64,000 bases of DNA from Candidatus Dojkabacteria bacterium. GTDB taxonomy: Bacteria > Patescibacteriota > Dojkabacteria > JAOAGR01. Location: positions 514,135 through 578,134 of the forward strand of contig AP026679.1 in assembly GCA_025999155.1 (NCBI GenBank), given 5' to 3'. The notes beneath the pieces were generated by a model, which ran no database searches, had not been told where the DNA came from, and saw only the letters and a program-made list of their open reading frames with translations. The position numbers and the translations under genes are program-made. Below, in pieces: positions 10,654-28,945 of the stretch; positions within the stretch are counted from its first letter, which is position 1; each line of letters starts with the position of its first letter.

Positions 10654-10696
10654 ACATCGCACAAGGGATCTATTTAATATTCTGGACTAAGTCGAT

Positions 10697-11308: not shown

Positions 11309-11311
11309 TGA

Positions 11312-12271
11312 CTATTTTTTGAATAGTGTAATTTCAATTTCTCCTGTAATGATAAATCTTAGTTTGCCATGATTTGGCGAAATGCGTAGTATTTTACCTT
11401 TATATTCTTGATTTTGTTTTTCAATTGCTGCTTCAAATTCTTGCCGAAATTGTTTCTGTAGTGCCTCACATTCTGTTTTGTTGTTATTACATAAGTTTAA
11501 AGGTACGATTATTTTAATATCCAATACTTCTATTTTGTCTATGATGTAGACGACAGCCGCACTGGTTTTATTCAGAAGTCTAACTGAGTACTTGATTGAA
11601 GTTTGGGATTCTATGGCATTTACATTGCTACGAGTTCTGATGATTATGGAATCGTCTGAAATATCATAAATTGACTCTTGTATACCCGAGCTTTTAGCTT
11701 CAGGAGTGAGTTCTTCAGACCAGCTACCGAGATGATACTTATCACTTTGATAAATGGACCATATTAGAAAAATTGATAGAACAGAGACAATAACGCTAAA
11801 TGATAGAATAAAAATCTGTTTAATGTTCAAATGTCTTAGTTTAGCTCTTTTGATACTTGGTTGTTCGATTTCCTCGGCTTTTGTATTTACTTCTTTTTCG
11901 TTATTTTGCTGATTTTCGCTGCTTGCGGAATGGTCGGGGGGGAGTTTGTTATTCGTGACTTTTTTTTCTGATCTTAAAGATGCAAGATTGAGTACTTTGG
12001 TATTATGGTTGTCTTCAATTTTTTCTTTAGGAGTCTGTGATGGACTTACTGTGTCTGGGGTATTTGATGTATTGTATGTAGTTATATCAGATGAAGTCGA
12101 TGTATTTGAAGGACCAGGTGTACTTGATGTATTTGGAGTATTTATAGTATTTATAGTATTTGATATTCTTGAGTGATTCAAAGTATTCGATATATCTCTA
12201 GTCTGCAATGTACTAATCGATGCTAATGATAGTCTGATATTTACACCTTTGGTATTCTTAAGCTGGTTCAT
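11312..12271 (-). CDS. Hypothetical single-pass membrane protein with S/T/N-rich low-complexity cytoplasmic N-terminus
   Basis: 319 aa. The first ~150 aa are S/T/N/P-rich (NTSSTPGPSNTSTSSDITTYNTSNTPDTVSPSQTP), followed by a TM (IFILSFSVIVSVLSIFLIWSI). The start overlaps the pyrD stop by 4 nt. Confidence 0.5.
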   Translation of the reverse strand: MNQLKNTKGVNIRLSLASISTLQTRDISNTLNHSRISNTINTINTPNTSSTPGPSNTSTSSDITTYNTSNTPDTVSPSQTPKEKIEDNHNTKVLNLASLRSEKKVTNNKLPPDHSASSENQQNNEKEVNTKAEEIEQPSIKRAKLRHLNIKQIFILSFSVIVSVLSIFLIWSIYQSDKYHLGSWSEELTPEAKSSGIQESIYDISDDSIIIRTRSNVNAIESQTSIKYSVRLLNKTSAAVVYIIDKIEVLDIKIIVPLNLCNNNKTECEALQKQFRQEFEAAIEKQNQEYKGKILRISPNHGKLRFIITGEIEITLFKK

Positions 12272-13449
12272 TGTGTTGATCTATGTTTGGAACCTACGGC
12301 TTCCGAGATATTGTTATAATTATCTTGTTTTAAGAAATATACGAGTTCTCTATTGATTTCACTTATTAATTGAGGACCTTCAAATATCATGCCTGTAATT
12401 AATTGTAATAAACTTGCACCTAATTTAATTTTGTTATAAGCGTCTTGTGCAGAAAATATTCCCCCGCATCCTATTATGATGTATTTTTTACCATATTTTC
12501 GATAAATATACTCAATTTGTTTATTTGAAAGATCTTCTTGCACTTTTCCACTCAAACCACCTTTTTCAGGAATATCTTTATCAAGAATTTTTTCATTATT
12601 TCGATTTTTCGTTAGATTTGAACAAATAAACCCGTCAATATCGTATCTCTCAGTTATTCGTAGGATAGACTCCAATTCGTTTTCGGATAAGTCCGGTGAA
12701 AGTTTCAAGAAAATTGGCTTAGTTTTTGGGTCTCTTGCAATTGCTGATAATAGTTGGTCAAGTAATTCTGGGTTTGTGAATGGTTGTCCTCCAAATGCAT
12801 TTGGACAAGAAATATTTATCGTGTAGTAATCACCGATATCCTGAAAAAGACGATAAGTTTTCAGGTAGTCGTCAATCGCTTCTTTTGGATTTATGGTATG
12901 TGGCGAATTAGTTTTTGCTATACTTATACCTACTGGTATTTTAAAAGATAGTTTCGATAGTCTTTGAGATATTGTTTCCGATCCGTCATTTTTTAATCCG
13001 TAATACACTACTAAAGATTGAGAGTTTTTTGCTCTCCATAATCTAGGTTTTGGATTACCTTTACAGTATTCGCCTGTGATCGAACCTACTTCTACAAAAC
13101 CAAAACCTACTTCTGGTAATATTGCTGTAAGTTCTGCATTCTTATCAAATCCAGCAGCTAATCCGATAGGATTTTTAAACATTATTCCTTTGATATTTTG
13201 TGATAAGTATTTATCATTCGAGTAGTAAAATAACAATTTAGTTATATTTCGTGTAATATTTATTGATCCAAACAATTTTCCTAGTTTTATAATGAAATCA
13301 TGTACCGTTTCTGGATCCTGTCGAAAAGCTATAGGTTTAAATACAGTTTTATATAATAATCTCAATATTTTGTTGCGTATTTTGATCAAACGGTCTGTCA
13401 TAATGTTATTTGATAATTGAATCTCGTATATATACAAACAGTGTACCAT
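12268..13449 (-). CDS. pyrD: Dihydroorotate dehydrogenase (class 2-like architecture)
   Basis: The motifs DPETVHDF, MFKNPIGLAAGFDKNAE, PKPRLWR, YYGLKNDGSE and NISCPNAFGGQ match class 2 PyrD (DPE.aH; FKNP.GLAAG.DK; PRL.R; N..G..N.G). Note Cys where class 2 enzymes carry Ser. Confidence 0.8.
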   Translation of the reverse strand: MVHCLYIYEIQLSNNIMTDRLIKIRNKILRLLYKTVFKPIAFRQDPETVHDFIIKLGKLFGSINITRNITKLLFYYSNDKYLSQNIKGIMFKNPIGLAAGFDKNAELTAILPEVGFGFVEVGSITGEYCKGNPKPRLWRAKNSQSLVVYYGLKNDGSETISQRLSKLSFKIPVGISIAKTNSPHTINPKEAIDDYLKTYRLFQDIGDYYTINISCPNAFGGQPFTNPELLDQLLSAIARDPKTKPIFLKLSPDLSENELESILRITERYDIDGFICSNLTKNRNNEKILDKDIPEKGGLSGKVQEDLSNKQIEYIYRKYGKKYIIIGCGGIFSAQDAYNKIKLGASLLQLITGMIFEGPQLISEINRELVYFLKQDNYNNISEAVGSKHRSTQ

Positions 13450-13470
13450 AGAAGATAGTAAAGATGGATT

Positions 13471-14169
13471 GTGTATAATAAAGGTATGAAGTTTAAGACA
13501 ATTTCTATTTTTCCTGAATTTTTTGAAAAATCTCTAGATTTTTCTTTAATCAAAAAAGCAAGACAAAAAGGTTTACTCGAGATAGAAAACTACAATTTAC
13601 GCAATTGGTCACAATCACGCAGCATACATAAACAGGTTGACGACAGACCGTTTGGAGGTGGTCCGGGTATGATAATGATGGTAGAACCAGTGTATAGAGC
13701 TTTAAAGGATATTAAAAAGACAACAAAGTCTGTTAGTATAATATTTTCCCCGAAAGGTAGGATGTACGACCAGACAATAGCAAAATATTTTGCTTGTAAT
13801 TTTGATGAAATTATCTTGATTTGTCCCCACTATGAGGGTTTTGATGAACGTATATTAAACTTTGTTGATTATGAATTGTCTATAGGAGACTTCATATTAA
13901 CTGGAGGTGAAATTCCAGCTTTAATAGTAATAGATTCAGTGTCTAGATTGATTCCCGGAGTTGTGGGAAATCGTGAATCTCTAAAAAATGAGTCTTTTTC
14001 GCATTTTGATAAGGGAGAAAGAAATTTTGAACATCCTCAGTATACTCGTCCCGCTGTTTTTATAGATGACGAAGGAAATAAATACCCTGTACCTGAAGTA
14101 CTCCTTAGCGGCAATCATCGTGCTATCAAACTTTGGCGTCACGCACAATCACGCGTTGAAAAATTGTAA
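13471..14169 (+). CDS. trmD: tRNA (guanine37-N1)-methyltransferase
   Basis: The motifs FKTISIFPEFF, GGGPGMIMMVEPV, CPHYEGFDERI and LSIGDFILTGGEIPALIVIDSVSRLIPGVVGN follow the SPOUT TrmD signature. Confidence 0.9.
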   Translation: MYNKGMKFKTISIFPEFFEKSLDFSLIKKARQKGLLEIENYNLRNWSQSRSIHKQVDDRPFGGGPGMIMMVEPVYRALKDIKKTTKSVSIIFSPKGRMYDQTIAKYFACNFDEIILICPHYEGFDERILNFVDYELSIGDFILTGGEIPALIVIDSVSRLIPGVVGNRESLKNESFSHFDKGERNFEHPQYTRPAVFIDDEGNKYPVPEVLLSGNHRAIKLWRHAQSRVEKL

Positions 14170-14272
14170 TTTCCTTTTATTTTTACTGTTGTATCGGGTT
14201 TACATTTCCGGAAAGTATCATGTTGTCAGGTCATTAGCTTTGTGATTCTCAATATAAGGTTTATAATAGGCG

Positions 14273-15145
14273 GTGTTTGAGTTATTAGTAGTAAATCCTC
14301 TAACGAATTTATTGATAGCCAGCTATGTGTTGGTAGGTAATAATTTAGGTTGGGCTCTTATTGTATTAACTCTTTTTCTAAGAGTTCTGCTTTTACCTTT
14401 AACAATAAAACAAATACAGACGCAACGTAAATTACAGGAGTTACAGCCAAGACTACAAGCTATGCAAAGGAATGCAAAAGACCCATCACAGCTGACACCA
14501 GAAGAAATTGGTTTAATGCGCGAAACTACACTATCGTGTTTAGGGGGTTTGTTCCCACTTTTGATCCAGATACCAATTTTGTTCGGCTTAAACTCAGTTA
14601 TTGCTCAAATAGCATCTGTAAATTCAGATCCTCATAAAGGAGGAGATTGGTTTAATCAAGTTCTTTATTTTGATTTCCTAAAGCATAGCTCGGATTACTC
14701 TTTCAATACAAATTTTTTCGGGCTAGATTTGGCTATCATTCCATCTCACGTTCCTTTTGGTGCGGAGTTTATTCCTTTTGGGGGATTGATGGTTTTGCTG
14801 GTTTTGACCCAGTTTTTACAATCTAAGTTAATATATTCTTTCCAACAGAACAGGAGTGATGGACATGCTCCTAGTCATAAACATAATAAGAAAAAAACAA
14901 AAGAAGAACTAGAAAAAGAAGAGTTACAACAGGCTCTGAATAGATGGAATCAGCTTCAAATGATATATGTCATTCCTCTGGCTGTTGGTTTGGGTGCATA
15001 TCAGTTTCATGCTGCTTTAGGTTTTTATTGGCTATTACAGAATATCTTTACCATAGTGCAGACTGTGATTCAATATGGATTCATGGATGGAAAATTTAAT
15101 GTACGTAAGCTGAAAGAGTATTTGAGTCGTCTTATAGCGAAATAA
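14273..15145 (+). CDS. yidC: Membrane protein insertase YidC/Oxa1 family (short form)
   Basis: 290 aa, multi-TM. The motif LRVLLLPLTIKQIQTQRKLQELQPRLQAMQ is the conserved YidC helix. It is followed by a jag-like gene, the conserved yidC-jag pairing. Confidence 0.7.
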   Translation: MFELLVVNPLTNLLIASYVLVGNNLGWALIVLTLFLRVLLLPLTIKQIQTQRKLQELQPRLQAMQRNAKDPSQLTPEEIGLMRETTLSCLGGLFPLLIQIPILFGLNSVIAQIASVNSDPHKGGDWFNQVLYFDFLKHSSDYSFNTNFFGLDLAIIPSHVPFGAEFIPFGGLMVLLVLTQFLQSKLIYSFQQNRSDGHAPSHKHNKKKTKEELEKEELQQALNRWNQLQMIYVIPLAVGLGAYQFHAALGFYWLLQNIFTIVQTVIQYGFMDGKFNVRKLKEYLSRLIAK

Positions 15146-15189
15146 CAATTACTGGAGACAATATTTATTAAGCAAGTTATAATAATCAC

Positions 15190-15663
15190 ATGGATAAATT
15201 AGAAATTATAAAAAACGTGGTAACAGAAATGTTTCAATTGGCATTCGGTGATAGGTTTTCGGTGGAATTTACACCAATATCATCGTCAACCATTAAGATT
15301 GATATTAGTGGTGATAATGTTTCTTGTTTGATAGGACAACGAGGGAAAACTTTGCTAGCGATTGAGCTATTAATTCGACAAATGCACATTAATTTATCTC
15401 AAGATTTTACGGACGAATTTAAAATCATAGTTGATATAGGTGGATATAAATCAAAAAAAGTTGAAAGAATACAGGAAATTGCAAGACAAGCAGCTCAAAG
15501 AGCCATTGAATTATCTAAGGATGTAACGTTGCCTCGCATGAATGCTTTTGAAAGACACATAGTACATCAATACATCAACGAGAATTTTAGTAATTTGCAA
15601 ACATTTAGTATTGGACAGGAGCCCGATCGTCGAGTTGTATTGTCAATAAAATATTCACAATAA
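15190..15663 (+). CDS. jag: Jag/KhpB-like RNA-binding protein (KH + R3H domains)
   Basis: 157 aa with an R3H-like C-terminus (FERHIVHQYINENF) and a KH-like GxxG region (IGQRGKTLLAIELLI). It lies directly downstream of yidC. Confidence 0.65.
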   Translation: MDKLEIIKNVVTEMFQLAFGDRFSVEFTPISSSTIKIDISGDNVSCLIGQRGKTLLAIELLIRQMHINLSQDFTDEFKIIVDIGGYKSKKVERIQEIARQAAQRAIELSKDVTLPRMNAFERHIVHQYINENFSNLQTFSIGQEPDRRVVLSIKYSQ

Positions 15664-15701
15664 AATATTGTAAAATCATTTCAAGTATTAGTATTAACTA
15701 C

Positions 15702-17208
15702 ATGTCTAGAAGCATATTTGAGCGTGTCGTATTTAGTTATAAGTTTTATAGATTGTTAGAGGCTTTACCTGGGCTTATATCGTGGACTTGTATTGCTATA
15801 CCTATCGTATTTAGTTTTTTTGCTCCAGATATAGCAGCTTATTTTGTTTTATTTTATGGAGTATATTGGGTTTATAATGCAATTAAATTTGTTGTACTTG
15901 CTTATGTTGCGCATGAAAAGGTTTTATATGTGGTCAAACAAGATTGGCTTGCAAAACTTAAACAAGAGTTTCCAGAACACTGGAACGAGTATTACTACTG
16001 CGCAATTATCCCTTTTGCTTCTGAATCAATAAATATAATTCGCCCAACAATCGAGAGTATTTTAAATAATAATTATCCTAATAATCGTAAGATTATTTGT
16101 TTATCTAGTGAAAAAGCTTTACCAAAAGGGAAAGAAATAGCCTTAGAACTACAGAAGGAATTTCAATCTAGATGTGCTTATTTTTTTGTAACAGAGCATG
16201 AACTTAAACCTGGCGAATTAAAAGGCAAAGCATCTAATCAAAATCATGCCGGACGTTTTGTATATCAAGAATTAACTAGCAGAGGTATTAATCCTGAAAG
16301 AGTTTTATTGACAAGCAACGATGCTGACATGATAAACCATAAGGAGTACATTCCTTATCTTGTTTACAAATTTTTATTAGAAGGGGAAAACAGGCATAAG
16401 AGAATCTATCAGCCAGTACCCACTGACTATAGCGGTGCCGTATGGGATGCTAGATTTTTTTCTCGGATCATTGTGACGCTAGGCGTGCAGTGGAGGCTTG
16501 CTTTATCACAGCGTAATAATTATAGGCTGACGGTATATTCATTCTATTCTATGAGCTTAAAAACCTTGCATGACATTGGTTTTTGGGATGTTGATAATAT
16601 TCCTGAGGATGAGAGAACTATGTTTAAAGCGATTTTCACGTTCGGGAGAGGATTTTCGTGTCAGTTCCATTGTTTATCCCCACTGCCGGTAGGCCTGATG
16701 CAGGCACAAAACATTTGTTGCCGCTGTGAAAGAGCAGTATATACAAATGCGCCGATGGGCTTGGGGAGCTTCGGAGTTTGCCCATTCTTTTATCAAGTCT
16801 GTTGAAAAAAAGGACATTCCTTGGCGAGTAAAAATTTTACCCCTGATTAACCAAGTGAGAACTGCTGTTGATTGGTCATTATCCTCCGTATTGCCGATGT
16901 TTGGTGGTATGATTCCTGGGCTTGTTAATGAGAAGTTTCGTTTGACGGAATTGTCGTATGCTGTACCGTCTGTCATGAGTTTATTATTTAGTATCAGTGC
17001 ATCAATGATTTTGCTTATTATCCTTGTTGATTTGCGGCTAGCTCCAAAGCCACAGAAGCAAGCAATCTTTTTCCGTATTAGTACCTTTGCTCAGTGGATT
17101 TTAGTGCCTTTTGTTGGTTTATTTTTAAGTTCGTTACCCGCTTTAGACGCGCAAACTCGTTTAATATTTAATAAACGTATTGTTTACGTTGAATCAAAGA
17201 AAGAATAG
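15702..17208 (+). pseudogene. Family 2 glycosyltransferase (cellulose-synthase-like, QxxRW type) interrupted by a +1 frameshift near 16700-16712
   Basis: ORF 15702..16805 carries GT2 motifs (IIPFASE, LTSNDAD, PEDERT = TED). The overlapping ORF 16726..17208 in the next frame begins with ..KEQYIQMRRWAWG (QxxRW) plus C-terminal TM helices. The frame switch is at the A4 run in GCACAAAACATTTG. Confidence 0.55.
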
Positions 17209-17215
17209 TAAATAT

Positions 17216-18358
17216 ATGGAAATTAGAAAAAATAAATTGATTTTAATCACTGGTGGTCATGTGACCCCTGCATTAGCATGTATCGAAGAACTTCAATCCA
17301 GGGGTTTTAATGATATAGTCTATGTGGGGCAAAAAAAATCTCTACTTTTTGACAAAAATTCATCGGCTGAATATAGACTAATCAAGGATCATTTAGGAAT
17401 TCCTTTTTATAACATTATTGCTGGTAAATTATCTTTATTTTTCCATTGGCATTCGATTGTTTGGCTATTGCGACTACCAATTGGGTTCATTCAAGCCTTG
17501 TATCTACTTGTTAAATTCAAGCCATCTATTATTCTCACATTTGGTAGTCACGTCGCTGTACCTATTTGTTTTTGGGGCGGCTTATTTAGAATTCCTATTA
17601 TTGCCCATGAACAAACGACTACAATTGGGCGCTCTAATAAATTCATCCAGAAGTTTGCAAAGCAAATCTGTGTATCATGGGAGTCAGAAATAGCTGACTA
17701 TCAAATCTCAAGTAATTTTAAAGATAAATTTATATTGACAGGTAATCCTATTCGAAAAGCTATTTTACATACTAAAAGTAATAATTTTATCTTTAAAGAC
17801 AAAAAACGTAAGACCATATTTATTACTGGTGGCAATCAAGGAGCTCACGCTATCAATGAATTTATCTTTGCTAATATAGCTCGTCTAACTTCAAAGTTTA
17901 ACGTTATCCATCAAACAGGCTCAAATACTTTATTTAATGATTTTGACAAGGCGAAAAAAATTGCTGAGAAAATAAATTGTGAGGGCGTCGTATATATTCC
18001 TAGGGATTATATTTTTGCCAACGAGATGGCGGAAGCATATGCAGAATCCGATCTTTTAATTTCTCGTGCTGGTGCTAATACTGTGACTGAACTGCTTGTA
18101 CTTAAAAAGAAAGCAATATTGATACCAATACCCACAACTTCTGGAAATGAGCAATTCAAAAATGCCAAGTTATTACAAGAGTTAGGATTAGCGCGTACTC
18201 TTTCTCAAGATGAATTAGATTTCGAAAGTTTGGAGAAACTCATAGAGGACTTATTGTCTGCTAATAAATTAGATGTTGATCGCATCGAGAAACTATCTTT
18301 ATTGCATAAAAATGCTCATAAATTGATTATAGATATAGTAGAACAGAATTTAATTTGA
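17216..18358 (+). CDS. murG: UDP-N-acetylglucosamine--N-acetylmuramyl-(pentapeptide) pyrophosphoryl-undecaprenol N-acetylglucosamine transferase (MurG-like GT28)
   Basis: The motifs ILITGGHVTPALACIEEL, IFITGGNQGAHAINE and LISRAGANTVTELL follow the MurG pattern (GGTGGH..PALA; TGGSQGA; RSGA.T..E). The start is taken at the ATG at 17216 after the stop of the preceding frame. The longer ORF begins at 17180. Confidence 0.7.
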   Translation: MEIRKNKLILITGGHVTPALACIEELQSRGFNDIVYVGQKKSLLFDKNSSAEYRLIKDHLGIPFYNIIAGKLSLFFHWHSIVWLLRLPIGFIQALYLLVKFKPSIILTFGSHVAVPICFWGGLFRIPIIAHEQTTTIGRSNKFIQKFAKQICVSWESEIADYQISSNFKDKFILTGNPIRKAILHTKSNNFIFKDKKRKTIFITGGNQGAHAINEFIFANIARLTSKFNVIHQTGSNTLFNDFDKAKKIAEKINCEGVVYIPRDYIFANEMAEAYAESDLLISRAGANTVTELLVLKKKAILIPIPTTSGNEQFKNAKLLQELGLARTLSQDELDFESLEKLIEDLLSANKLDVDRIEKLSLLHKNAHKLIIDIVEQNLI

Positions 18359-18389
18359 TGAAGCTTGTGTACTAAATCGTGTTTTCGGG

Positions 18390-20102
18390 CTATTTTTTAA
18401 GCCCTAGTTTGATAAACATATCTGCCGAATCAGCGACAGGTACACTAGACTGGTTAGTTTCTATTACAATAGGAAATATTGCTGTAAATGTTGATCCTAC
18501 ATTGACTTCTGATTCGATCAGCAATTCACCACCCATTGCCTTTAGCAAGCCTTTTACTACGTATATTCCAAGCCCTGTACCTCCTGCACGTACAATCGTA
18601 TGCGATGAATCTAAATGTTGGTGTACACGATAAAATTTCTTTCCAATGTTTTGTAATTCTTTTTTTGGTATTCCTATTCCAGTATCTTTTACAGAAAAAA
18701 TCACTTTACCGTCTTTTTCATCAAGAGTTACGGTTACTGAACCTTGATGAGTGTATTTGATAGCGTTACTAATCAAGTTATTTACAATTTCTTGTACACG
18801 GTTAGGATCATTGGTTATTACGAATCCTTCTGGTTTGTGATTTTCGAAGGTTAACTTTAATTGTTTAGCTTCAGCATCCTTTTGGTAGGCCTGCAATGAA
18901 AATTCTATGGTATCAACTAAATTGAATTGTGTTGCTTGCAAATTGATTTTAGAATTATCTACGTGTGAAGTTGAAAGCATGGTTTGTATTAAATCTGCTT
19001 CTTTAGTTATTGAAATATGAATTTTTTCAAGTTTTTCCTTCAGATAAGTTAAGTCTAATTCTTGACCACTATTTACTTTAGCTAAAAGTAATTCTGTCAT
19101 ACCACGAGCAACTGTAATAGGTGTACGTAGCTCATGACCCATTATTCCCATCATATCACGTTCTACACGGTATTTCTCTTCAATTATTGCCTTTTGTTTA
19201 CGTATCTTTGCGGTAGCTGACTTGATTTTTGAATTCAAAATCTGATTGAAATTTTTTAAATCTTCATATAAGTCAAGTTTATATAGATATACTGCAAATA
19301 TTTCACTAATTTCCTTGAGAAATCGTATTTCATCGTTAGTAAATACGATATCTTTTTTTTGTACCCCTAGTAAAACATAACCAATTACCTGATTAAGATA
19401 TTTTAATTGTATAAGACAATTGACATCAAAACTGTTTTTAAGTATTTGAAAGAATCTTAGGACCTGAATATTTGTTGTCACCCCATCCATGTATTTCCTA
19501 TATTCTTCATCAAATATGAAAACATTGGAATCTTGGTATTCGAATATTTTTGTAAACGTTTCTTTATGTTTTTTGTATTCAGCATGATGAGTAAGAATGA
19601 TTGTGCAATTTTTGATACCCAACGTTGGTATAACTATGGATTTATACAGATCTATAAGATCAATGACTGAATTTACTCTTAGAACAATATTTTTGAATCT
19701 CTCTAATTGTTTTTTAAAGTTGGGTATCGGTAGAAATCTTTGAAAATATCCATTTTGGAAAGCAAATTTAAAAAATATTAGAAATAAAAATGTCGATATT
19801 GAATAGATGATAATTTCGGTACTTATATATTTATCTTGTGGTAGTCGTCTAATTAAGTAGTTGGTAGTGACTATAAAGGCAACGAAAATTGATGTTAAAA
19901 TCAACTTCTCAATAAATTCTGAAAAAACTATACGAAAATCTGCATAACGGTAATTTACTAGAAGGTACATAAATCCTAACGACATAAAAATTGCAAGCGC
20001 CGGGCCGATCAGTATAAATCTATAATCCTGTAGAGATGGTAATGCCACACTAGAAGTTATCACCTCGCAATTGCAGATATCAATAGACTGAGACGTGAAC
20101 AC
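18390..20102 (-). CDS. Membrane-bound sensor histidine kinase with GAF-like sensor domain (no adjacent response regulator)
   Basis: H-box GHELRTPITVARG, N-box NLISNAIKYT, G1 DTGIGI, G2 GGTGLGI. The N-terminus is multi-TM and a GAF-like segment precedes the DHp domain. Confidence 0.85.
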   Translation of the reverse strand: MFTSQSIDICNCEVITSSVALPSLQDYRFILIGPALAIFMSLGFMYLLVNYRYADFRIVFSEFIEKLILTSIFVAFIVTTNYLIRRLPQDKYISTEIIIYSISTFLFLIFFKFAFQNGYFQRFLPIPNFKKQLERFKNIVLRVNSVIDLIDLYKSIVIPTLGIKNCTIILTHHAEYKKHKETFTKIFEYQDSNVFIFDEEYRKYMDGVTTNIQVLRFFQILKNSFDVNCLIQLKYLNQVIGYVLLGVQKKDIVFTNDEIRFLKEISEIFAVYLYKLDLYEDLKNFNQILNSKIKSATAKIRKQKAIIEEKYRVERDMMGIMGHELRTPITVARGMTELLLAKVNSGQELDLTYLKEKLEKIHISITKEADLIQTMLSTSHVDNSKINLQATQFNLVDTIEFSLQAYQKDAEAKQLKLTFENHKPEGFVITNDPNRVQEIVNNLISNAIKYTHQGSVTVTLDEKDGKVIFSVKDTGIGIPKKELQNIGKKFYRVHQHLDSSHTIVRAGGTGLGIYVVKGLLKAMGGELLIESEVNVGSTFTAIFPIVIETNQSSVPVADSADMFIKLGLKK

Positions 20103-20395
20103 ACCGAGTTGTAATTTCAGAAATCCACTTGTGTCTGTTTATATGATTCATATAGACTGTATGTATACCGTAAGCCAAGCTGACCATCATACAATACGTA
20201 GTATGGGGTTTTGAAAGAATGAGGTCACTATTAGTTTTTATCCTGTTATATTCGTCATATATCACACCCGCATCTAAATAGTTCAGTAAATATGCGCTAG
20301 TATGACAAGTAATACGCTTAATGCAGTACATATACCGAACAAATAGCTTGTTTGTGAGGGACCCTTTGTTTTGCTTTTGGATCGGGAAGGTTTGG

Positions 20396-20650
20396 CTAAA
20401 AAATAGTAGCCCCCCAATAGACATCAATAGTGCCGAGACGTTCGCTATTCTGTTGTACAAAAAAGCCTCGCTCTCGGCTCGTTGTTATTTGAAAAAGGTA
20501 GTTCGATGTTGCCCAGAGTACAACACCTATCAGTATTAAAAAGACCTGTATAGAGTAAGGAGTCGACCTACGCTTTACTAACAAATAAAAACCGCTTATA
20601 CAACCGATAGTTATGACAATAAATAGGAATATAACCGTTAATGTCTCCAC
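20396..20650 (-). CDS. Possible small 2-TM membrane protein (GTG start)
   Basis: An 84-aa ORF with two hydrophobic helices lying between the 380-aa unknown gene and the histidine kinase on the same strand. It starts with GTG and competes with the overlapping ORF 20080..20460. Confidence 0.25.
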   Translation of the reverse strand: METLTVIFLFIVITIGCISGFYLLVKRRSTPYSIQVFLILIGVVLWATSNYLFQITTSRERGFFVQQNSERLGTIDVYWGATIF

Positions 20651-20744
20651 AAGATAAATATATCATTTTTCTTCATTTACTCAAAAAACTTCTATATTAA
20701 AAAAAACTATATTTATATAATTTACAATAGGCTTTAAAAAAGCT

Positions 20745-21887
20745 TTATGTCTCAATAAGTTCGTTCATGTTAGTTAAATTTGAATTAAATGCTATAGCGA
20801 CTGGACTTCCTGTTAATGTCTTGAAATCTTGTAGACCTTTCGCTAGCTTCCGTATTGCGCCCCATCTTACCATTTGTGTAACGGGAATTCGTATGATATT
20901 ACTTAATGCTTGTAGTAATTTCGCCCTAGTATGTACTTTTGTACTTCCTGGTTGTGGTATAGTTTGTATAGTAGTAAACAAATTCGTGCTGAAACTTTTT
21001 AACCACAGATAAAATCCTAAAAATCGGTCATGTAAGATTACAGATTTTAGAAATGTGTTGCGCATACCAGGTGCTAAATCACTCTCGGCTAGACCTCTAG
21101 CCAATTCTCTGTACATTGCCGCCAGTTCCTTATCACCTGAATTGCGAAATATTAGAGAAAGAGTGTGGGCAATACCAGCATTTGAAGCCTCAGCTATCCA
21201 TGCACTATCGCTAACCAATGTACCAGTAGTTTCATCCTTCTTCTCCATGCGTACCCCGCAAGTATTAATCTTGTATCTTTTCACGAGGTGTGGTCCTAAT
21301 ACAGCTTGTAAAGCTTTAACCAAGCTGTAACCTGATACTCCTACAGATTTTGGTACGAATGGGTGTTTTTTACTAGCTTCATGTATAACACCACATCCAA
21401 ATGCAATTAATAGCAAAGCTCGTGCCACTTCTTTAGGAAGGCGAGGATTGCGTCCGCTAAAGGTTAGTACTCTATCAACATATACTCGGTTGTCAGTCTG
21501 TTTCATATATGGCAAAAGAGATGTGTATTCAATCCGACCATTATCTTCGACAACAAATCCTGCTAATATAGATTTGTTTGGATCTTCCGAAATACGCATG
21601 GTAGCAAATGGATACTCACCACCTGTACTGATAACAATATGTCTTGCTGGATCATCAATTCCAGGGATATAATCTGTTTCTGGGAAGACACAGCTGTTTA
21701 TGACTTCTTCATCTACTTTATCTCCTATAGATAGATATGGATTAGATTCTTTCATGGCTTTTGGGTTCACGATCCAATATGTCTTATCACGTCGTCCAAG
21801 CCTCTCGATAGCCTCCATTCTCGCTTCAGCTAAAGTTTTTTGGGCATTTCCATCGGGATTTCCCGAGCCACTACCACCGAAATGCAT
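20745..21887 (-). CDS. Hypothetical protein, no recognisable family; locally elevated GC
   Basis: A clean 380-aa ORF. The opposite strand is broken into ORFs of 90 aa or less. It begins with a Gly/Ser-rich segment (MHFGGSGSGNPDG). I recognise no catalytic or binding motif. Confidence 0.6.
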   Translation of the reverse strand: MHFGGSGSGNPDGNAQKTLAEARMEAIERLGRRDKTYWIVNPKAMKESNPYLSIGDKVDEEVINSCVFPETDYIPGIDDPARHIVISTGGEYPFATMRISEDPNKSILAGFVVEDNGRIEYTSLLPYMKQTDNRVYVDRVLTFSGRNPRLPKEVARALLLIAFGCGVIHEASKKHPFVPKSVGVSGYSLVKALQAVLGPHLVKRYKINTCGVRMEKKDETTGTLVSDSAWIAEASNAGIAHTLSLIFRNSGDKELAAMYRELARGLAESDLAPGMRNTFLKSVILHDRFLGFYLWLKSFSTNLFTTIQTIPQPGSTKVHTRAKLLQALSNIIRIPVTQMVRWGAIRKLAKGLQDFKTLTGSPVAIAFNSNLTNMNELIET

Positions 21888-22094
21888 TGGTGTAAGAGGA
21901 TCTACAGGACAAATATTTATGACTGCTTGATTTGTGTTTTGGTTTTCTTGTTGCTACCATCCTATTGACCAGCTATAGTATACACTATCATTGGCTTTAC
22001 ATTTATATATAATTAATATAGATGCGTGATTTCTGTATTTTCATTTTCACAACGAAAGATTTGCGTGAATTAGATATACTTTCTATTATTTACC

Positions 22095-25000
22095 ATGTTT
22101 GTTCATTTGCGGGTACACTCTGACAACTCTATTCTTAATGGTGTCATGAAGATTGACAAAATTGTGAAGAAAGCAAAAGAATTTGGTATGCCCGCTATTG
22201 CGATAACCGATATTTGTGCCATGTATGGTACGGTGAGTTTCTGGCAAAAATGTAATAACGAAGGTATCAAACCGATATTTGGCGTAGAAGTTAATTTGGC
22301 ACCTCGAACACGACATGATAAAGAAGCAAAGCTTGATGAAAAAACAACATCTCTTGTATTACTAGCAAAAAATCTTACTGGTTATCAGAATCTTATAAAA
22401 ATAGTTTCTATAAGTCATTTAGAAGGCTTTTATTATAAACCACGAATCGATTATGAAGTTTTAGAAAAGTATCATGAGGGACTGATTCTGCTCTCCGGTG
22501 GTATATCCGGTAATATAGCGAAAAATCTTTATTTAGGTAATTCTGAGGAAGCATATGCCATCGCACAAAAATATAAATCAATCTTTGGAGATGATTTTTA
22601 TTTAGAAGTCACTAGATTAGGCACCCATATGGAGGAAGTTATAGAGCCGAAAGTGCTTCAAATGTCAAAAGATCTTGGTATACCTATTGTGGCGACCAAT
22701 GATGTGTATTATGAGAAACAGGAAGACTGTGAAGTCAGGGAAGTACTTTGGTGTATCGATAGCGGTAGACTACTAAGTGATCCATCTCGTAAAAGACCAG
22801 AAACAGACCAACAATATTTTCGTTCTCCTCAAGAAATGATTGAACTTTTTAAAGATTTGCCAGAAGCTATTGAGAATACGTTAAGGATTAACGATGAAAT
22901 AGAAAGTTTTAGTATCAGTTACGGTAAGGTACAGCCAATTTATCCAAAAATTCCAGAAGGTGAGACAGAAGAAACTTATCTCAGAAAGCTTGTTTTTACT
23001 AATGCTAAAAAACGTTTTGGTTATTGGACTGAGAAAGTAGAAAAACAATTAGATTATGAATTAAAAATTATTCATGAAAAAGGTTATGATGGATATTTTC
23101 TTGTGGTATGGGATGCTGCTAATTGGGCGCGTTCCCATGGTATTTCAGTAAGTGCTAGAGGTTCGGCGGCTGGTACAAGTATAGGTTATGCACTAGGTAT
23201 TTCTACCGTCGACCCTCTCAAATGGAATCTTTATTTCGAAAGGTTTTTAAATCCGGAACGAAAATCTCTTCCTGATATTGATTTAGACATTGCAGATAAC
23301 CAAAGAGATGAATTAGTTAATTACATAAAACAAACTTATGGGGAAAATTGTGTTGTGAATGTAGGTGCTTTAGGTAAATTAACCACTCGTGCAGCTATAC
23401 GTGATGTAGGAAGAGTTTTAGGTATTGATCTAAGAACAACAGATCAATTATCTAAACTTGTACCTGTTCAATTTGGTCGTGTTTTGGGTATAAAACCTAT
23501 GTTAAGTGATGAATTAGCTGATAAAGAACTGAAAATTGTTGAAGCGCACAGAGAAAAAGTCGAAGAATTCAGACGAATACTAAAGGAAGATGGTAACGAC
23601 CTTCAGGACATCAAGTACTGCGCACAATGTAAACAAATATTATTCGGTACAGATCTTGAAAAATGTAAAAATTGTGGAAATGCATTGAAAGTAGTGGCTC
23701 AGGCATCTAGCAGATTTACGAAACTTTTATATTACGTGTACAAAATCGAAGGATGTGTTAGGAATGTATCTACTCACGCATGCGGATATTTAATTACGTC
23801 ACCTCAACCTATAGTCGATTATTGCCCTTTACAAAAAGAGTCAGGCAGTCGTGAGAGAATAATTACCCAATTTGAAGGTAAATATTTGGAAGAAATTGGC
23901 CTGATGAAATTCGATTTTCTGGGGGTAGCGAATCTATCGATTATTGATAATACCGTCAACTTAGTAAAGAAATATAAAAATATTGATATCGATATTTATA
24001 ATCTCGATGAAAATGACCAAAAGACCTATGACTTGTTATGCAAAGCGGACACTACCGCAGTATTCCAACTGGAAAGTGCCGGGATGAAGAAATATCTAAG
24101 GGAGCTGCAGCCGCGCAATCTGGAAGAAATCTCTGCTTTATTGGCTTTATATCGTCCTGGTCCTTTGCAGTATATACCAACATATATCAATCGTAAATTT
24201 GGGCGCGAAGAGACTACGTATTTGATTCCAGAGCTTGAAGATATTATGAAGATTACTTATGGTCTGCCTGTATATCAAGAGCAAATACTGCAAATAGCAC
24301 ATCATCTTGCTGGCTATACACTTGGTGAGGCAGATAATTTGCGACGTGCAATGGGTAAAAAATTACCTGCAGTCATGGCTGAAGAAGAGCAGAAGTTCAA
24401 GGCTGGTTTTATGAAAAATTATCCACATTACGGTCAAGAGATTGCCGATAAATTATGGGAGTATGCTTTACCTTTTGCTGATTATGGCTTCAATAAATCT
24501 CATACTGCAGCATACGCCTTAATCTCTTTTCAGACGGCTTACTTAAAAGCTAATTATCCTACGGAGTTTTTTACCGCATTGATGCTGGCCGATATTGAAA
24601 AGCTTGATAAGTTAAAAAGGGATATTGTTGATGCTCAGATGCATGGTATCAAGCTTTTACCTCCAAATATCAATAAATCTGATGCTTTTTTTACAATAGA
24701 AGGAGATGGAATTATACGTTTTGGAATTGGTGGTTTAAAAGGAGTTGGACTCAAAACTATACAACATATTGTTGATGAAAGGGTAAAAAATGGTGAATTT
24801 AAATCTCTTGATGATTTATGTTACCGCATTGATCATAAAGTAGTACCAAAAGGGGCAATAGAGGCGCTGATTAAAATCGGTGCGATGGATGATTTCGGCT
24901 CACGAGCTGGCTTGCTCAAAATTTATAACGATGTATACACAAAAGCACAAAAATCTAAATCTGCTCAATCTACTGGGGCAGTAGATATGTTTAGTTTGGA

Positions 25001-25835
25001 TAATGCTGGTTATACTCTGGCAGCAACAAAAATTCCTGATATACCTGAAGTAGACAATAATCAAAAGAGAGTATGGGAAAAAGACATACTAGGTGTTGCT
25101 TTGACTCCTGATTTACTAGATCAGATAGATTCATACTTACGAGAAAAAGGGTACAAATTGATTCATAACCTGCAAGACATAAACAGTTACAGCACAAAGT
25201 TGGTTAAGCTTTTTGGTTTGGTTACGGCGGTTAATGAAATTACTACAAAGAAAGGTGACTTAATGAGCTTTGTGAAGTTAAAAGATTCTACAGGTGAGAT
25301 ATCGGTGACCGTCTTTCCAAAGGTCTATGAGAAATGCAAAGACTTAAAAGATGGAGTCTACATTCATGTGCAAGGCAAAATACAAAGACGTAAGGAAGAT
25401 CCTGAAATAATTGCAGATGATATAAAAATTTATACTCCTGAGGATCTTCAGAGTATCATAGTAAAGTTAAATAAAAAAATTTCAAATTTGGCACAACAAA
25501 ATCAGCAAGTATACAACACTTCGAATGAAGTAATAACAGAAATTTCACAGTCTCAGAATATTCACATTGGTGCAGAAGAGAAGACAAAAATCCCAAGCAG
25601 CCCAGAGGTAAATTGTATAAGTAGCATAGAAATAAAGCTCAAGAATAATGTAAAACTAGAGTCTTTAGAATCATTTAGTCATTATTTGAGATCTATGGTT
25701 GATGATGACGGTGTAGAAGTATATTTGCACATACCTAGTCACCATACCGTCCGCACAATTAAGCTTGATGGTAAGTATAGTCCTAACGTAAAAGATTATC
25801 AGGGAGATATTATTGAAGATATTGTTGTAAAATAG
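22095..25835 (+). CDS. dnaE: DNA polymerase III alpha subunit
   Basis: 1246 aa. The N-terminal PHP domain reads MFVHLRVHSDNSILNGVMKIDKIVKKAKEFGMPAIAITD. Polymerase-domain motifs include GLMKFDFLGV and PDIDLDI. Confidence 0.9.
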   Translation: MFVHLRVHSDNSILNGVMKIDKIVKKAKEFGMPAIAITDICAMYGTVSFWQKCNNEGIKPIFGVEVNLAPRTRHDKEAKLDEKTTSLVLLAKNLTGYQNLIKIVSISHLEGFYYKPRIDYEVLEKYHEGLILLSGGISGNIAKNLYLGNSEEAYAIAQKYKSIFGDDFYLEVTRLGTHMEEVIEPKVLQMSKDLGIPIVATNDVYYEKQEDCEVREVLWCIDSGRLLSDPSRKRPETDQQYFRSPQEMIELFKDLPEAIENTLRINDEIESFSISYGKVQPIYPKIPEGETEETYLRKLVFTNAKKRFGYWTEKVEKQLDYELKIIHEKGYDGYFLVVWDAANWARSHGISVSARGSAAGTSIGYALGISTVDPLKWNLYFERFLNPERKSLPDIDLDIADNQRDELVNYIKQTYGENCVVNVGALGKLTTRAAIRDVGRVLGIDLRTTDQLSKLVPVQFGRVLGIKPMLSDELADKELKIVEAHREKVEEFRRILKEDGNDLQDIKYCAQCKQILFGTDLEKCKNCGNALKVVAQASSRFTKLLYYVYKIEGCVRNVSTHACGYLITSPQPIVDYCPLQKESGSRERIITQFEGKYLEEIGLMKFDFLGVANLSIIDNTVNLVKKYKNIDIDIYNLDENDQKTYDLLCKADTTAVFQLESAGMKKYLRELQPRNLEEISALLALYRPGPLQYIPTYINRKFGREETTYLIPELEDIMKITYGLPVYQEQILQIAHHLAGYTLGEADNLRRAMGKKLPAVMAEEEQKFKAGFMKNYPHYGQEIADKLWEYALPFADYGFNKSHTAAYALISFQTAYLKANYPTEFFTALMLADIEKLDKLKRDIVDAQMHGIKLLPPNINKSDAFFTIEGDGIIRFGIGGLKGVGLKTIQHIVDERVKNGEFKSLDDLCYRIDHKVVPKGAIEALIKIGAMDDFGSRAGLLKIYNDVYTKAQKSKSAQSTGAVDMFSLDNAGYTLAATKIPDIPEVDNNQKRVWEKDILGVALTPDLLDQIDSYLREKGYKLIHNLQDINSYSTKLVKLFGLVTAVNEITTKKGDLMSFVKLKDSTGEISVTVFPKVYEKCKDLKDGVYIHVQGKIQRRKEDPEIIADDIKIYTPEDLQSIIVKLNKKISNLAQQNQQVYNTSNEVITEISQSQNIHIGAEEKTKIPSSPEVNCISSIEIKLKNNVKLESLESFSHYLRSMVDDDGVEVYLHIPSHHTVRTIKLDGKYSPNVKDYQGDIIEDIVVK

Positions 25836-26034
25836 GGGAAAAAAGACTCATCAATAATACCCTTAACTATATTTAGGTTTTCTAATAAAGATTTCTTAGT
25901 AAAGATTTCTTGGCGATCAAAATTTGTATATAGAAAATTTTATTTTATGCAATCCATAATTTAAATATGCAGAGTCGAGATAAAAATTGACCCATAAAAG
26001 AATATGTTTTATAATATCTTATATAATCTAATAT

Positions 26035-27552
26035 ATGAACATATCAGAATTCCGAAATAAAGTAGAAAGCTCTACCAACGTCCTTTTAGTGCTGCCTTAT
26101 TTGGTAGATCCGGATAGTATTGCAACAGCTTCTTTGTTGTACAGGTTTTTAATCTCTAAGGGGAAAAAAGTAGATATTGCGGCCGAGAAAGTACCTGTAA
26201 CTATATTCAATAACATATTTTCATTGGCTGGTATTGAGGCTACCAAAATATTAAACAAAATTAGTCCTATACGTTATGTGATTAGTGTATCCAATGTAAG
26301 TGATAAAACTAGTATCGACTGGGAGCGAAGAGCTGATCAATTAGATATTAAACTTACTCCAGATGCCGGCATTGTTGATTTTGAAAGTATTACTTATTCG
26401 CGAGAAGGAGGTATTTATGATCTAGTCATTACTATAAATGTGGGTAGGTTATCTGACCTGGGCGAAATTTATACTTCTATACCAAAAAAATTTGAGGAAT
26501 ATGAAATAGTGTCTATTGGAGGAAATTTGAATCTAGAGGGTAGGGCAATAGTGTCCTTATCTCAAGATCTATGGATGTCTACAGAGCTTTTATATAATTA
26601 CGCAAATGATTTGGATCTTGAGATAGATCAAGCTAACGCCTCCATCATATTACACGGGATTATAGGGCAGACGCATGGTCTACAAAAAGTGTATAGTAAT
26701 AACACTTTTGCTATAGTGACAGATATCGCCAATAAATATCAATTAGATTTATCAACAATTATTAAGCAGTATTTTGCATCTGTTGGCATCGATAATGTAA
26801 GGGTGCAGGAGAAGATTCTAAATAATTTGAAATTTGATGAATCACGAAAGACAGTATATTCATATTTGACTAATCGGGATTTAGCTCAGTTAGGTATTTC
26901 TTTTAGTAACTTTGATTATAATTATTACTTACCATTTAGCGTAGATGGTAGAGAATATTATTCATTTATAGTTTTAGAATCAGGACTTTCATCTTTTGTT
27001 TACTTAGTTTCGCCTTTTGAATCCGAAGAATATATTGGGATCGTGAATAGGTCTAATGCTATAAGGAATAAGACTCTTGCATATATTTCTATTGATGCTG
27101 GTGCTATAGATGCTGCTAATCAAGTGCTTGGGGTAATTTCTGGTGGGACAATTTTACAAAGACAACAAGAAGAAAAAAAAGTATTTTCTAATGCATCTTC
27201 AATAACGCAGAACATTGATACTGTATCAGAGGGCTGGGGATATGATGATAATACTAATCAACAACCAATTTCAGCTCCAACAATTCCTTTAAATTCGCCG
27301 AACTCTGCAATATCAAGTAGTTCGGTGGGGGCATATATAATGACGAGTACTAACACTGTTTTTGATCAGGGATCTATTCATTCAACAGAGCATTCTGCTA
27401 ATCAAGGCTCTGCTTATCCTACAGATCCGTCACCCTTCCAGAAAGCAGGAGATTCGCAAATTAATTCTGTTGTATTACATTCATCCAATTTGCATACACA
27501 AACACAACATATGAATCCCTCTGCTCCTCCATTTACGCCAGCTAATACGTGA
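26035..27552 (+). CDS. Hypothetical protein; N-terminal region faintly DHH/NrnA-like but degenerate, C-terminal ~130 aa S/T/N/Q-rich low complexity
   Basis: 505 aa. LVLPYLVDPDSIATASLLY..GKKVDIAAEKVP resembles the NrnA N-terminus (H.NPDGDAIGS) but lacks the DHH motif. The tail reads SAPTIPLNSPNSAISSSSVGA...NSVVLHSSNLHTQTQH. Confidence 0.5.
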   Translation: MNISEFRNKVESSTNVLLVLPYLVDPDSIATASLLYRFLISKGKKVDIAAEKVPVTIFNNIFSLAGIEATKILNKISPIRYVISVSNVSDKTSIDWERRADQLDIKLTPDAGIVDFESITYSREGGIYDLVITINVGRLSDLGEIYTSIPKKFEEYEIVSIGGNLNLEGRAIVSLSQDLWMSTELLYNYANDLDLEIDQANASIILHGIIGQTHGLQKVYSNNTFAIVTDIANKYQLDLSTIIKQYFASVGIDNVRVQEKILNNLKFDESRKTVYSYLTNRDLAQLGISFSNFDYNYYLPFSVDGREYYSFIVLESGLSSFVYLVSPFESEEYIGIVNRSNAIRNKTLAYISIDAGAIDAANQVLGVISGGTILQRQQEEKKVFSNASSITQNIDTVSEGWGYDDNTNQQPISAPTIPLNSPNSAISSSSVGAYIMTSTNTVFDQGSIHSTEHSANQGSAYPTDPSPFQKAGDSQINSVVLHSSNLHTQTQHMNPSAPPFTPANT

Positions 27553-27653
27553 TGCAAAAATGTACAAGTCTCAATCTATTTTTGTCCTTTCTGTTAGTTT
27601 AATTCTGGATCTGTTATATGTGGTATATTAGTTTTGTATCTGAACTTTAGGGT

Positions 27654-28295
27654 TTGTGCTTTGTTAATCACTGCCTAATTATATATTCGTGTCACTCTTT
27701 ACAAACCGTTCAAAAAAGTATATTTTTGACTATATTACAGATGAAGCGTACTGAACAGAAAGACGTGAGGTTGATCTATGATTTGGTTGATGTAGCAATA
27801 TTGCCAGCAGCTTTAATGATTCTTAGTAAGGTCTTATCTATTACGGCCATCAATTATTTTCTTGGTCTTGACTGGAGCGTACGCAGTGTTGCAAACTCTG
27901 TATTCTCGATAGGTCTGGTTTACAATAGTGCTGAAGATGCTGTTTTAGTATCTAGTTATTCTAATCTGTTTATGTTTGTATCGGTTATTGCAGGTTGTAT
28001 GGTTGTAACCGGCAAATCTTTACTTTTAAATCATCGTAGAGCATCTCCTTATTTCGTCTTGAAATTAGCGAAGTATGACTTATTACATCTGTTGAAGTCA
28101 TCATTTCATATATATAAAGAAGCATTTGTCTGGACAACATTCTTAATAATTACTACTGTATATATTTTTGTTTCATTTCTTCTTGGTATGACTTATGGCT
28201 GGGTTGCTACGATGACGCTACTTTTTACTTTGATTTTTATTTGGATTATGGTACAAAATATAGAAGAAGAATTACTTTTTAATAATTACAAATAA
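27654..28295 (+). CDS. Hypothetical polytopic membrane protein
   Basis: About 5 predicted TM helices. The likely true start is the internal Met at 27741 (MKRTEQKD...). No recognised motifs. Confidence 0.5.
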   Translation: MCFVNHCLIIYSCHSLQTVQKSIFLTILQMKRTEQKDVRLIYDLVDVAILPAALMILSKVLSITAINYFLGLDWSVRSVANSVFSIGLVYNSAEDAVLVSSYSNLFMFVSVIAGCMVVTGKSLLLNHRRASPYFVLKLAKYDLLHLLKSSFHIYKEAFVWTTFLIITTVYIFVSFLLGMTYGWVATMTLLFTLIFIWIMVQNIEEELLFNNYK

Positions 28296-28306
28296 TAAGA
28301 TAAAGC

Positions 28307-28945
28307 ATGCAATCGTCCAAATTCATAAAAAAAATAAATCAGATTTTAAATGCTTCTTCAGAGAGCTTTCTGCTTATTGCCTTAATTTCATTATTTGCGT
28401 TCCCTATCGTTATAGCAAAAAGTTTGGAGCCTGTAGTTGCATCCGAAGAGTCTGTAGTTTCGATTCCTACAATTATTCATTATACAGATAAAACGCCTGA
28501 TACAAATGGTCAGTTTGCTTCTACTGCAAACAATGAGTCCCAAAATGTTCTAGGCGCGTTTAATTCTGTTACCATAGATAGGATGTTGACTTTAGATGAA
28601 GAAATTCTGATGTCTTTTGATAGGGTGTATCAAAAGGTTTTACCTGATTTATATGTGCTCTCTGTAGAACAAGCCCCGACATTTAAAAAAGTTAGGCTCT
28701 TTAGTTTAAAGAATGAATTACCAGTAGATAAGAAGTTTTACATAAGCGTAACCGTACCAGATGGTCTAGCAAGTGTAGTGGGTAAGCAAAAGAACGTATA
28801 TATAAACGATAAAAAGTATGTTCTTGGTACTGATGATTTACCAACAGATGGTTTTATTTTAAAGCCGAATGAGGAGATCTCTGTATATATTGAAAGCTCT
28901 CGTACTACTACAACAAAGTTAGTATTTGGAGTAAAAGTAGATTGA
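28307..28945 (+). CDS. Hypothetical secreted/membrane-anchored protein
   Basis: 212 aa. An N-terminal signal-anchor (FLLIALISLFAFPIVIA) is followed by a beta-rich domain. No recognised family. Confidence 0.5.
   Translation: MQSSKFIKKINQILNASSESFLLIALISLFAFPIVIAKSLEPVVASEESVVSIPTIIHYTDKTPDTNGQFASTANNESQNVLGAFNSVTIDRMLTLDEEILMSFDRVYQKVLPDLYVLSVEQAPTFKKVRLFSLKNELPVDKKFYISVTVPDGLASVVGKQKNVYINDKKYVLGTDDLPTDGFILKPNEEISVYIESSRTTTTKLVFGVKVD

Follow-up and report, generated by a model that had tools for sequence, protein, structure and literature searches.

HisKA_7TM (PF16927) is a recognised membrane sensor domain of histidine kinases, and the ligand of this family is not known (Galperin et al. 2018, PMC5847659). 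Here, a histidine kinase gene with such a sensor domain and the clade-restricted gene directly upstream of it, called the orphan gene below, were analysed in a 64-kb stretch of contig AP026679.1 from a Dojkabacteria genome (the whole stretch is referred to as the window). The KatS3 genomes originate from Katase hot-spring sediment and were assembled with metaFlye 2.8.3 from PacBio HiFi reads (PMC9671151). The orphan open reading frame (ORF) of 380 amino acids (aa) matches, with 100% identity, a hypothetical protein encoded on the 738-kb contig of 'Candidatus Dojkabacteria bacterium KatS3mg084'. A reading of the letters alone (the sequence-only reading) had described the locus as a co-directional cluster of three genes, consisting of an unrecognisable 380-aa protein, a small ORF with two transmembrane (TM) helices and an orphan GAF-histidine kinase that lacks a response regulator. 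Our analysis resolves two genes instead, since the small ORF is a kinase fragment made by frameshifting insertions, and these insertions are most likely an artefact of assembling two merged strains, judging from the alleles of related genomes.

The comparison relied on five loci of close relatives from other samples (L001-L005) and on four more distant loci with a homologous kinase (L006-L009). The L001/L002 and L003 loci are collinear with the window over about 20 kb, and the order common to them comprises pyrophosphatase, DHODH, trmD, yidC, R3H/KH, GT2, murG, the kinase, the orphan gene and dnaE, continuing to glyS and an M24 peptidase. L004 and L005 are 98.8% identical to each other.

Reading frame and layout of the kinase gene

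In nucleotide alignments the window is colinear with L002, L001 and L003 from the GTG start of the kinase to its stop codon (Table 1). The only length differences are twelve insertions that occur in the window alone, amounting to 20 nucleotides (nt) between 20470 and 20063, and eleven of the twelve are not multiples of three. The frame is thereby interrupted in the window, while it is uninterrupted in L002 and L003, where the kinase is a single ORF of 746 aa with PF16927 (HisKA_7TM), PF00512 and PF02518. Deleting the insertions yields a stop-free ORF of 2241 nt, or 746 codons. In L004 (L004:5322-8986) and L005 (L005:1378-3611) the gene is frameshifted at different places, and in L004 the homologue of the orphan gene is split as well, into pieces of 145 and 268 aa.

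The three minus-strand ORFs of the sequence-only reading are present where it had placed them, and its recognition of a histidine kinase is borne out by Pfam matches of the 570-aa ORF to HisKA (30.9 bits) and HATPase_c (97.8 bits). The 84-aa ORF, on the other hand, does not stand as a separate gene, as it corresponds to the start of the kinase, which L002 and L003 encode in one ORF of 746 aa. The first sign of its fragment status was a weak Pfam match to HisKA_7TM, which is the membrane domain at the N-terminus of a family of kinases. Because the 84-aa ORF is the start of the same gene, the 570-aa ORF is, on the evidence of the alignment, a truncated reading of the 746-aa kinase gene.

The repaired protein contains about nine hydrophobic segments in hydropathy analysis, seven of them clear and two weaker. 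It begins with a HisKA_7TM sensor, which aligns to model positions 2-221/224, and continues through two more TM helices and about 180 aa of cytoplasmic domain to HisKA and HATPase_c. Precomputed PF16927 matches exist for P0004, P0006 and P0010-P0012. The PF00512 scores lie at 30.5-30.9 bits against a threshold of 26.9, and the ATP-binding boxes N, G1, F and G2 are all present (NLISNAIKY, DTGIG, FYR and GTGLG). The ratio of non-synonymous to synonymous substitution rates (dN/dS) in the catalytic half is 0.07-0.10. By domain content, the protein would count among the class-I HisKA/HATPase_c sensor kinases, with HisKA_7TM as its input domain.

The GAF label previously given to the cytoplasmic domain could not be upheld. 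Neither GAF (PF01590, PF13185, PF13492) nor PAS was matched in Pfam at E<=1 with the whole protein or at E<=10 with the isolated 184-aa domain of two orthologues, and PDB sequences gave zero matches. A model of the domain by AlphaFold2 (AF2) from four sequences reached a predicted local distance difference test score (pLDDT) of 46, too poor for a fold search. Its pattern of hydrophobic strands followed by a long helix into DHp is one that we take to be compatible with a PAS- or GAF-like module.

Two interleaved alleles in the kinase and GT2 genes

The locus is about 80-90% identical to L004 in sliding windows, except for a core (17646-19744) that is nearly indistinguishable from it. The flanks of this core are 96-98% identical to L001, and the core is bordered by two blended zones, at 20499-19760 and at about 17300-16000. 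At sites where L004 and L002 differ, the window sides with L002 at about 88% between 22100 and 20500, and with L004 at 96% between 19759 and 18390. From 20499 to 19760 the choice of allele is near-random, with 70 switches in 150 sites, and this is where all of the insertions in the kinase are located (12/12).

The inserted bases themselves can be traced to the alternative alleles. Together, the 20 bases lengthen the longest common subsequence by 17 with the L004 allele and by 4 with the L002 allele. When the same bases were placed at random in 500 trials, the combined gain was 3.9 +/- 1.9 with a maximum of 11, and none of the 500 reached the observed value. Individual sites display the two alleles in tandem: AGAC-GA and AGAG-GA appear in the window as AGAGCGA, and CACAA--GGG and AAAGT--GGG appear as CACAAGTGG.

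A corresponding pattern is found in the GT2-like glycosyltransferase gene that adjoins murG. This gene encodes 499-503 aa in the relatives and is split in the window into the overlapping ORFs 15702-16805 and 16726-17208. Four single-base insertions fall within 65 nt, each placing an L004-type and an L001-type base side by side (TTTT-TG and TCTG-TG, for example, give TTTTGTG), and the cluster is situated in the mixed zone across the core from the kinase. Across 21 kb of alignment with L001 and L003, the frame-breaking indels specific to the window within aligned genes are all insertions, with zero deletions. They are tightly packed into one cluster in the kinase (20470-20063) and one in the GT2 gene (16712-16648); the sole exception is the insertion at about 21936, which is counted as frame-breaking within the extended orphan ORF of about 403 aa. 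Genes elsewhere in the alignment have in-frame indels only. HiFi homopolymer errors were also weighed as a source of the frameshifts but dismissed, as most of the insertions are not homopolymer extensions.

On a larger scale, comparison of 10600-27700 with L001, L003 and L004 gives a patchwork in which 300-nt bins jump between about 85% and 97-100% identity. Examples are 24022-26392, which resembles L003, 10780-17645, which resembles L001, and the core, which resembles L004. Either frequent recombination among Dojkabacteria populations or strain-chimeric assembly could have produced this patchwork.

The insertion-only spectrum, the unchanged dN/dS, the switching of haplotypes and the identity of the inserted bases with the other allele all argue that the kinase insertions are most likely an assembly artefact from two merged strains and not the mark of a pseudogene. 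Two related strains in the sample would share, or nearly share, the core of 2.1 kb. Reads of both strains would have been stacked along its flanks, at the points of haplotype switching, and the consensus there would have written the bases of both alleles side by side. The best explanation as a whole is that of two genes, with a kinase frame broken by a strain-collapse consensus artefact and a kinase that is intact in the cell, to which we assign a probability of roughly 0.72. In the cell, the 7TM domain would sense a membrane or envelope-associated signal, the kinase would autophosphorylate on its conserved His, and a response regulator whose gene lies elsewhere in the 738-kb genome would receive the phosphoryl group. 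The orphan gene upstream would be a neighbour with no established link to the kinase.

Several observations weigh against this explanation. The artefact is deduced from comparison with genomes of other samples and not seen directly in reads, HiFi assemblies are normally accurate, and this specific failure mode was not found documented for metaFlye. The score of the repaired protein on HisKA_7TM, 27.3 bits, falls just below the gathering threshold of 28.6; the L003 orthologue is above it with 32.2. No response regulator was found, and that a distant partner receives the phosphoryl group is an assumption drawn from what is generally known of two-component systems. Finally, L004 and L005 each carry a single kinase frameshift of their own, by a 2-nt and a 1-nt deletion, respectively; the gene may be prone to genuine inactivation, or the L004 and L005 assemblies may also contain errors.

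Real pseudogenisation or truncation would mean that the 7TM region has decayed, leaving either a dead kinase or a 570-aa remnant that is read from the GTG at 20102 and retains the last four or so TM helices. The intact and strongly conserved 570-aa ORF and the breakage of the kinase at different places in two other assemblies of the clade speak for such decay, and a small probability is kept for it because the L004 and L005 frameshifts are either real lesions or assembly errors. Neither the relaxed selection nor the mixed indel spectrum of a pseudogene is evident, however. Codons 70-207, with the insertions removed, have a dN/dS of 0.33 between the window and L002 against 0.32 for the intact pair L002-L003, a substitution pattern which indicates that the protein is still under selection, and there are twelve insertions, zero deletions and no excess of substitutions. 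Inserted bases that belong to the other allele (0/500 simulations), a matching cluster in GT2 on the far side of the L004-identical segment and the interleaving of two alleles, which neutral mutation is not expected to produce, make decay very improbable. Less easily dismissed, albeit doubtful, is a chimera of larger scale, in which 17646-19744 stems from another organism than the orphan gene and the pair as written never occurred in one genome. The blended zones on both sides of the segment would fit such an origin, as would its 99.7-100% identity to L004 where the orphan gene has only 57-66% (nucleotide). Natural recombination between populations would nevertheless yield the same identity pattern. 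Furthermore, every relative has the same order and its own version of both genes, so that the arrangement of orphan gene then kinase is real whichever strain gave each piece.

Table 1. Coordinates of the features discussed (positions in the window; relatives as in the text).
Feature	Position	Strand	Details
Clade-restricted orphan gene	20745..21957	minus	ORF of 380 aa; likely start ATG ~21957, giving ~403 aa
380-aa ORF	21887-20745	minus	From the ORF listing; no Pfam match
Single extra C, this contig only	21936	minus	Cuts the orphan gene off from its conserved upstream ATG
Promoter-like site	20657..20684	minus	TTGAGT, 16-nt spacer, TG-TATATT; in the 94-nt gap; consensus match only
Histidine kinase gene	18390..20650	minus	746 aa after removal of 20 inserted bases; GTG start 20650, stop at 18390
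84-aa ORF (earlier 'small 2-TM ORF')	20650-20396	minus	About the first 60 kinase codons (TM1-TM2 of the 7TM domain) and an out-of-frame tail after the 20470 insertion
126-aa ORF	20460-20080		Further frame fragment of the kinase
570-aa ORF	20102-18390	minus	HisKA and HATPase_c; read from internal GTG at 20102
Blended zone	20045..20499	minus	L002-type and L004-type alleles interleaved; twelve contig-specific insertions
Insertion sites in kinase	~20470, 20403 (3 nt), 20336, 20295, 20284, 20240, 20229-20216 (4 nt), 20190, 20160 (2), 20134/20128 (2), 20092, 20063 (2)		
Cytoplasmic domain, ~180 aa (earlier 'GAF')	19194..19745	minus	Between last TM helix and DHp helix
HisKA (DHp) domain	18960..19160	minus	PF00512; predicted phospho-acceptor His in HELRTP, residue 499 of the repaired protein
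HATPase_c catalytic domain	18468..18812	minus	PF02518, 97.8 bits
L004-identical core	17646..19744		99.7-100% identity to L004; covers 3' part of the kinase and end of murG
GT2-like glycosyltransferase gene	15702-17208		Adjoins murG; insertions at 16648, 16664, 16696 and 16712; 3-nt insertion at ~16440

The orphan gene and the search for a regulator

The orphan ORF probably starts 23 codons further upstream than first read, at an ATG near 21957. Its orthologues have 399, 420 and 425 aa with starts 19-40 codons upstream, and the conserved upstream stretch NQAVINICPVDPLTP is in frame with the window ORF and cut from this ATG by the C at about 21936. The description of the 380-aa protein as unrecognisable holds, with zero matches in Pfam, and significant matches were likewise absent from NCBIfam, PHROGs, PADLOC and a PDB profile search, as were PDB sequence matches. 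The best signals in NCBIfam, PHROGs and PADLOC were set aside as noise (for instance 11 bits and E=0.03-0.13 for Cas1). In a word-indexed search, three of 5.8 billion proteins matched, namely the protein itself, P0002 (78%, 399 aa) and P0003 (62%, 420 aa), and when 1.84 billion representative proteins were searched exhaustively with a profile, nothing came up outside its own family of four or five genomes. The AF2 model of the 380-aa protein from a three-sequence alignment had a pLDDT of 34.7, too poor for a fold search. By hydropathy, the protein is predicted to be soluble, and it is slightly basic, with neither a TM segment nor a signal peptide.

The gene had also been called GC-atypical, and this is correct for its total GC content, 0.396 compared to about 0.31-0.36 in the neighbouring genes, but not for its third codon position, where GC is 0.28 as in the rest of the genome. 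GC at codon positions 1, 2 and 3 is 0.49, 0.42 and 0.28, respectively, while position 2 has about 0.31 in other genes. This excess at position 2 points to amino-acid composition as the cause and not to foreign origin, which was considered and rejected given the match of the third position to the genome. A second GC-rich gene of the window (32075-33400; 0.416) encodes 441 aa without a Pfam match; it was tested as a paralogue of the orphan protein and found to be unrelated.

The orphan ORF is kept open in four lineages of a genome of 33% GC. By this criterion, together with inter-lineage indels that are mostly in-frame, the descending GC content of codon positions 1 to 3 and a dN/dS of 0.35-0.4 in the C-terminal half, the orphan is judged to be a real gene. 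For the whole gene dN/dS is 0.53-0.82, and for the N-terminal half it is 0.8-1.2, with 0.78 in the pair L002-L003, which is independent of the window. The corresponding values are 0.09 for dnaE and 0.15 for murG. The N-terminal values suggest diversifying or relaxed selection in this half. The orthologue in L005 has only about 38% protein identity in spite of flanking genes with 85-90% DNA identity. Our best guess for the product of the orphan gene is a cytoplasmic protein specific to the clade, in which a helical core at the C-terminal end is conserved and the N-terminal half varies.

The claim that no response regulator lies within 10 kb can be extended to the whole 64-kb window, since REC (PF00072) was detected neither by Pfam in any ORF of at least 100 aa nor by a home-made REC profile (CheY, PhoB, Spo0F and NarL) in six-frame fragments of at least 40 aa. 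No REC gene adjoins the kinase in the window, as one would in a two-component operon, and none was found in the nine related loci (L001-L009). The sequence-only reading was right in that a membrane kinase follows directly downstream of the unrecognisable protein and in the same direction. This order of orphan gene then kinase is conserved in every relative found (L001-L005), on the same strand and with a gap of 76-97 nt in 5/5 related loci (94 nt in the window).

Close relatives of the sensor part are limited to four, all from the same clade and 70-85% identical to the L003 orthologue. Six further homologues of full architecture share 28-36% identity, and three of the six carry the label Dojkabacteria. 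Among full-length homologues at 28-30% identity, at least two come from genomes so labelled. In L007:6280-7959, L008:6247-7932 and L009:2580-4220 a protein of 546-561 aa directly precedes the kinase, in two different neighbourhoods. This protein has no Pfam annotation, gives a methyltransferase signal below threshold in its N-terminal part, carries the conserved motif 'GEIRRLGT' and may constitute a conserved functional unit with the 7TM kinase of these loci. A profile of the family had no match in the window, and homology of its members to the orphan protein was rejected with an hhalign probability of 0.2%. Upstream of the L006 kinase lie genes for patatin, UDPGT and an alpha/beta hydrolase, the last of these directly before it. 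Since none of these loci contains a REC gene, the Dojkabacteria kinases of this family appear to be encoded consistently apart from any regulator, and often after an unannotated gene which is not always the same one. A literature search for Dojkabacteria combined with histidine kinase returned nothing.

Functional coupling of the orphan gene and the kinase is speculation at this point. In its full form, coupling would make the two proteins a dedicated signalling unit, in which the orphan protein makes, binds or relays the signal or acts as a non-canonical phospho-acceptor. Such a unit would agree with the conserved same-strand adjacency, with the distant Dojkabacteria kinase that is likewise preceded by a protein without Pfam match (546-561 aa) in two neighbourhoods, and with the lack of a REC gene near any of these kinases. 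The adjacency is of little weight, however, because the close relatives are collinear across the whole of about 20 kb, and no homology is detectable between the proteins that precede the kinase in the two clades, with an alpha/beta hydrolase in that place in L006. The two genes moreover evolve at widely differing rates (dN/dS 0.53-0.82 for the orphan and 0.07-0.45 for the kinase), and no REC-like or HPt-like signal was found in the orphan protein. The promoter-like site between them is also conserved in its aligned part: about 30 nt directly upstream of the kinase start (20651-20680), overlapping the -10 element, are nearly invariant in the relatives over an aligned stretch of 19950-20680, outside which the -35 hexamer lies. 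This hints that the kinase may have its own promoter and be transcribed separately. A dedicated unit is accordingly considered unlikely.

One may extend this thought to the Dojkabacteria at large, where 7TM kinases that lack a neighbouring regulator would each team up with an upstream protein particular to the lineage, the pairs making compact modules, regulator-less or non-canonical, in reduced episymbiont genomes. We regard this as a long shot, somewhat less probable still than the dedicated unit. If true, the upstream protein (the 380-425-aa orphan here and the methyltransferase-like protein of 546-561 aa elsewhere) would generate or relay the signal, and the rapid evolution of the orphan's N-terminal half would keep pace with changes in a host or partner.

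Neighbouring genes and comparison with known systems

The window has a GC content of about 33% and is dense in housekeeping genes, among them dnaE, murG, yidC, trmD, a MurT/GatD pair, aminoacyl-tRNA synthetases, rho and ftsH. An Rfam scan of the window gave two tRNAs and nothing else. At 8571-10653 a MurT-like ligase adjoins a GatD-like amidotransferase, the pair for iso-glutamine amidation of peptidoglycan, with a PGA_cap protein adjacent. Downstream of dnaE, three consecutive plus-strand genes of 505, 213 and 212 aa (26035-28945) keep their order in L001-L003, and these had no match in Pfam or PADLOC. An ORF with a Laminin_G_3 (concanavalin-like) domain at 54081-55727 has an unusually high GC of 0.58 at codon position 2. 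At 54731-55329 overlapping ORFs, four in all and each about 140-190 aa long, are spread over both strands, which suggests a low-complexity or repeat-rich segment.

In terms of biology, the locus adds one more orphan sensor kinase of known architecture beside one more gene of the candidate phyla radiation (CPR) without assigned function. For studies of CPR signalling, the recurrence in Dojkabacteria of a 7TM kinase behind an unknown protein offers a modest lead. The more general implication is one of caution, as a HiFi metagenome contig of circular quality can hold short zones in which two strains are interleaved, giving rise to false frameshifts, small ORFs and seemingly truncated genes. Three genes within 5.5 kb are affected in the window, and a search of this genome for pseudogenes, small membrane proteins or signs of reduction would be led astray.

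The orphan gene resembles the fast-evolving ORFan genes of CPR bacteria in having no homologue beyond four or five genomes and an N-terminal dN/dS of 0.8-1.2, but it is unlike the usual fast-evolving surface proteins since it has neither a signal peptide nor a TM helix. The insertions resemble the consensus errors of strain-collapsed metagenomes, being non-homopolymer clusters that lie exactly at the zones of haplotype switching and consist of the alternative allele's bases, with the difference that the case of the window is built on alleles from other samples. Like other orphan histidine kinases, the kinase is complete and, from its motifs, apparently competent, with no REC gene in the 64 kb or the related loci. 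What sets it apart from HisKA_7TM kinases is a pair of additional TM helices and a cytoplasmic domain, about 180 aa long, with no recognisable PAS/GAF signature. It is like them in an N-terminal polytopic membrane domain that aligns over almost all of the family model and is followed by HisKA and HATPase_c with all catalytic boxes.

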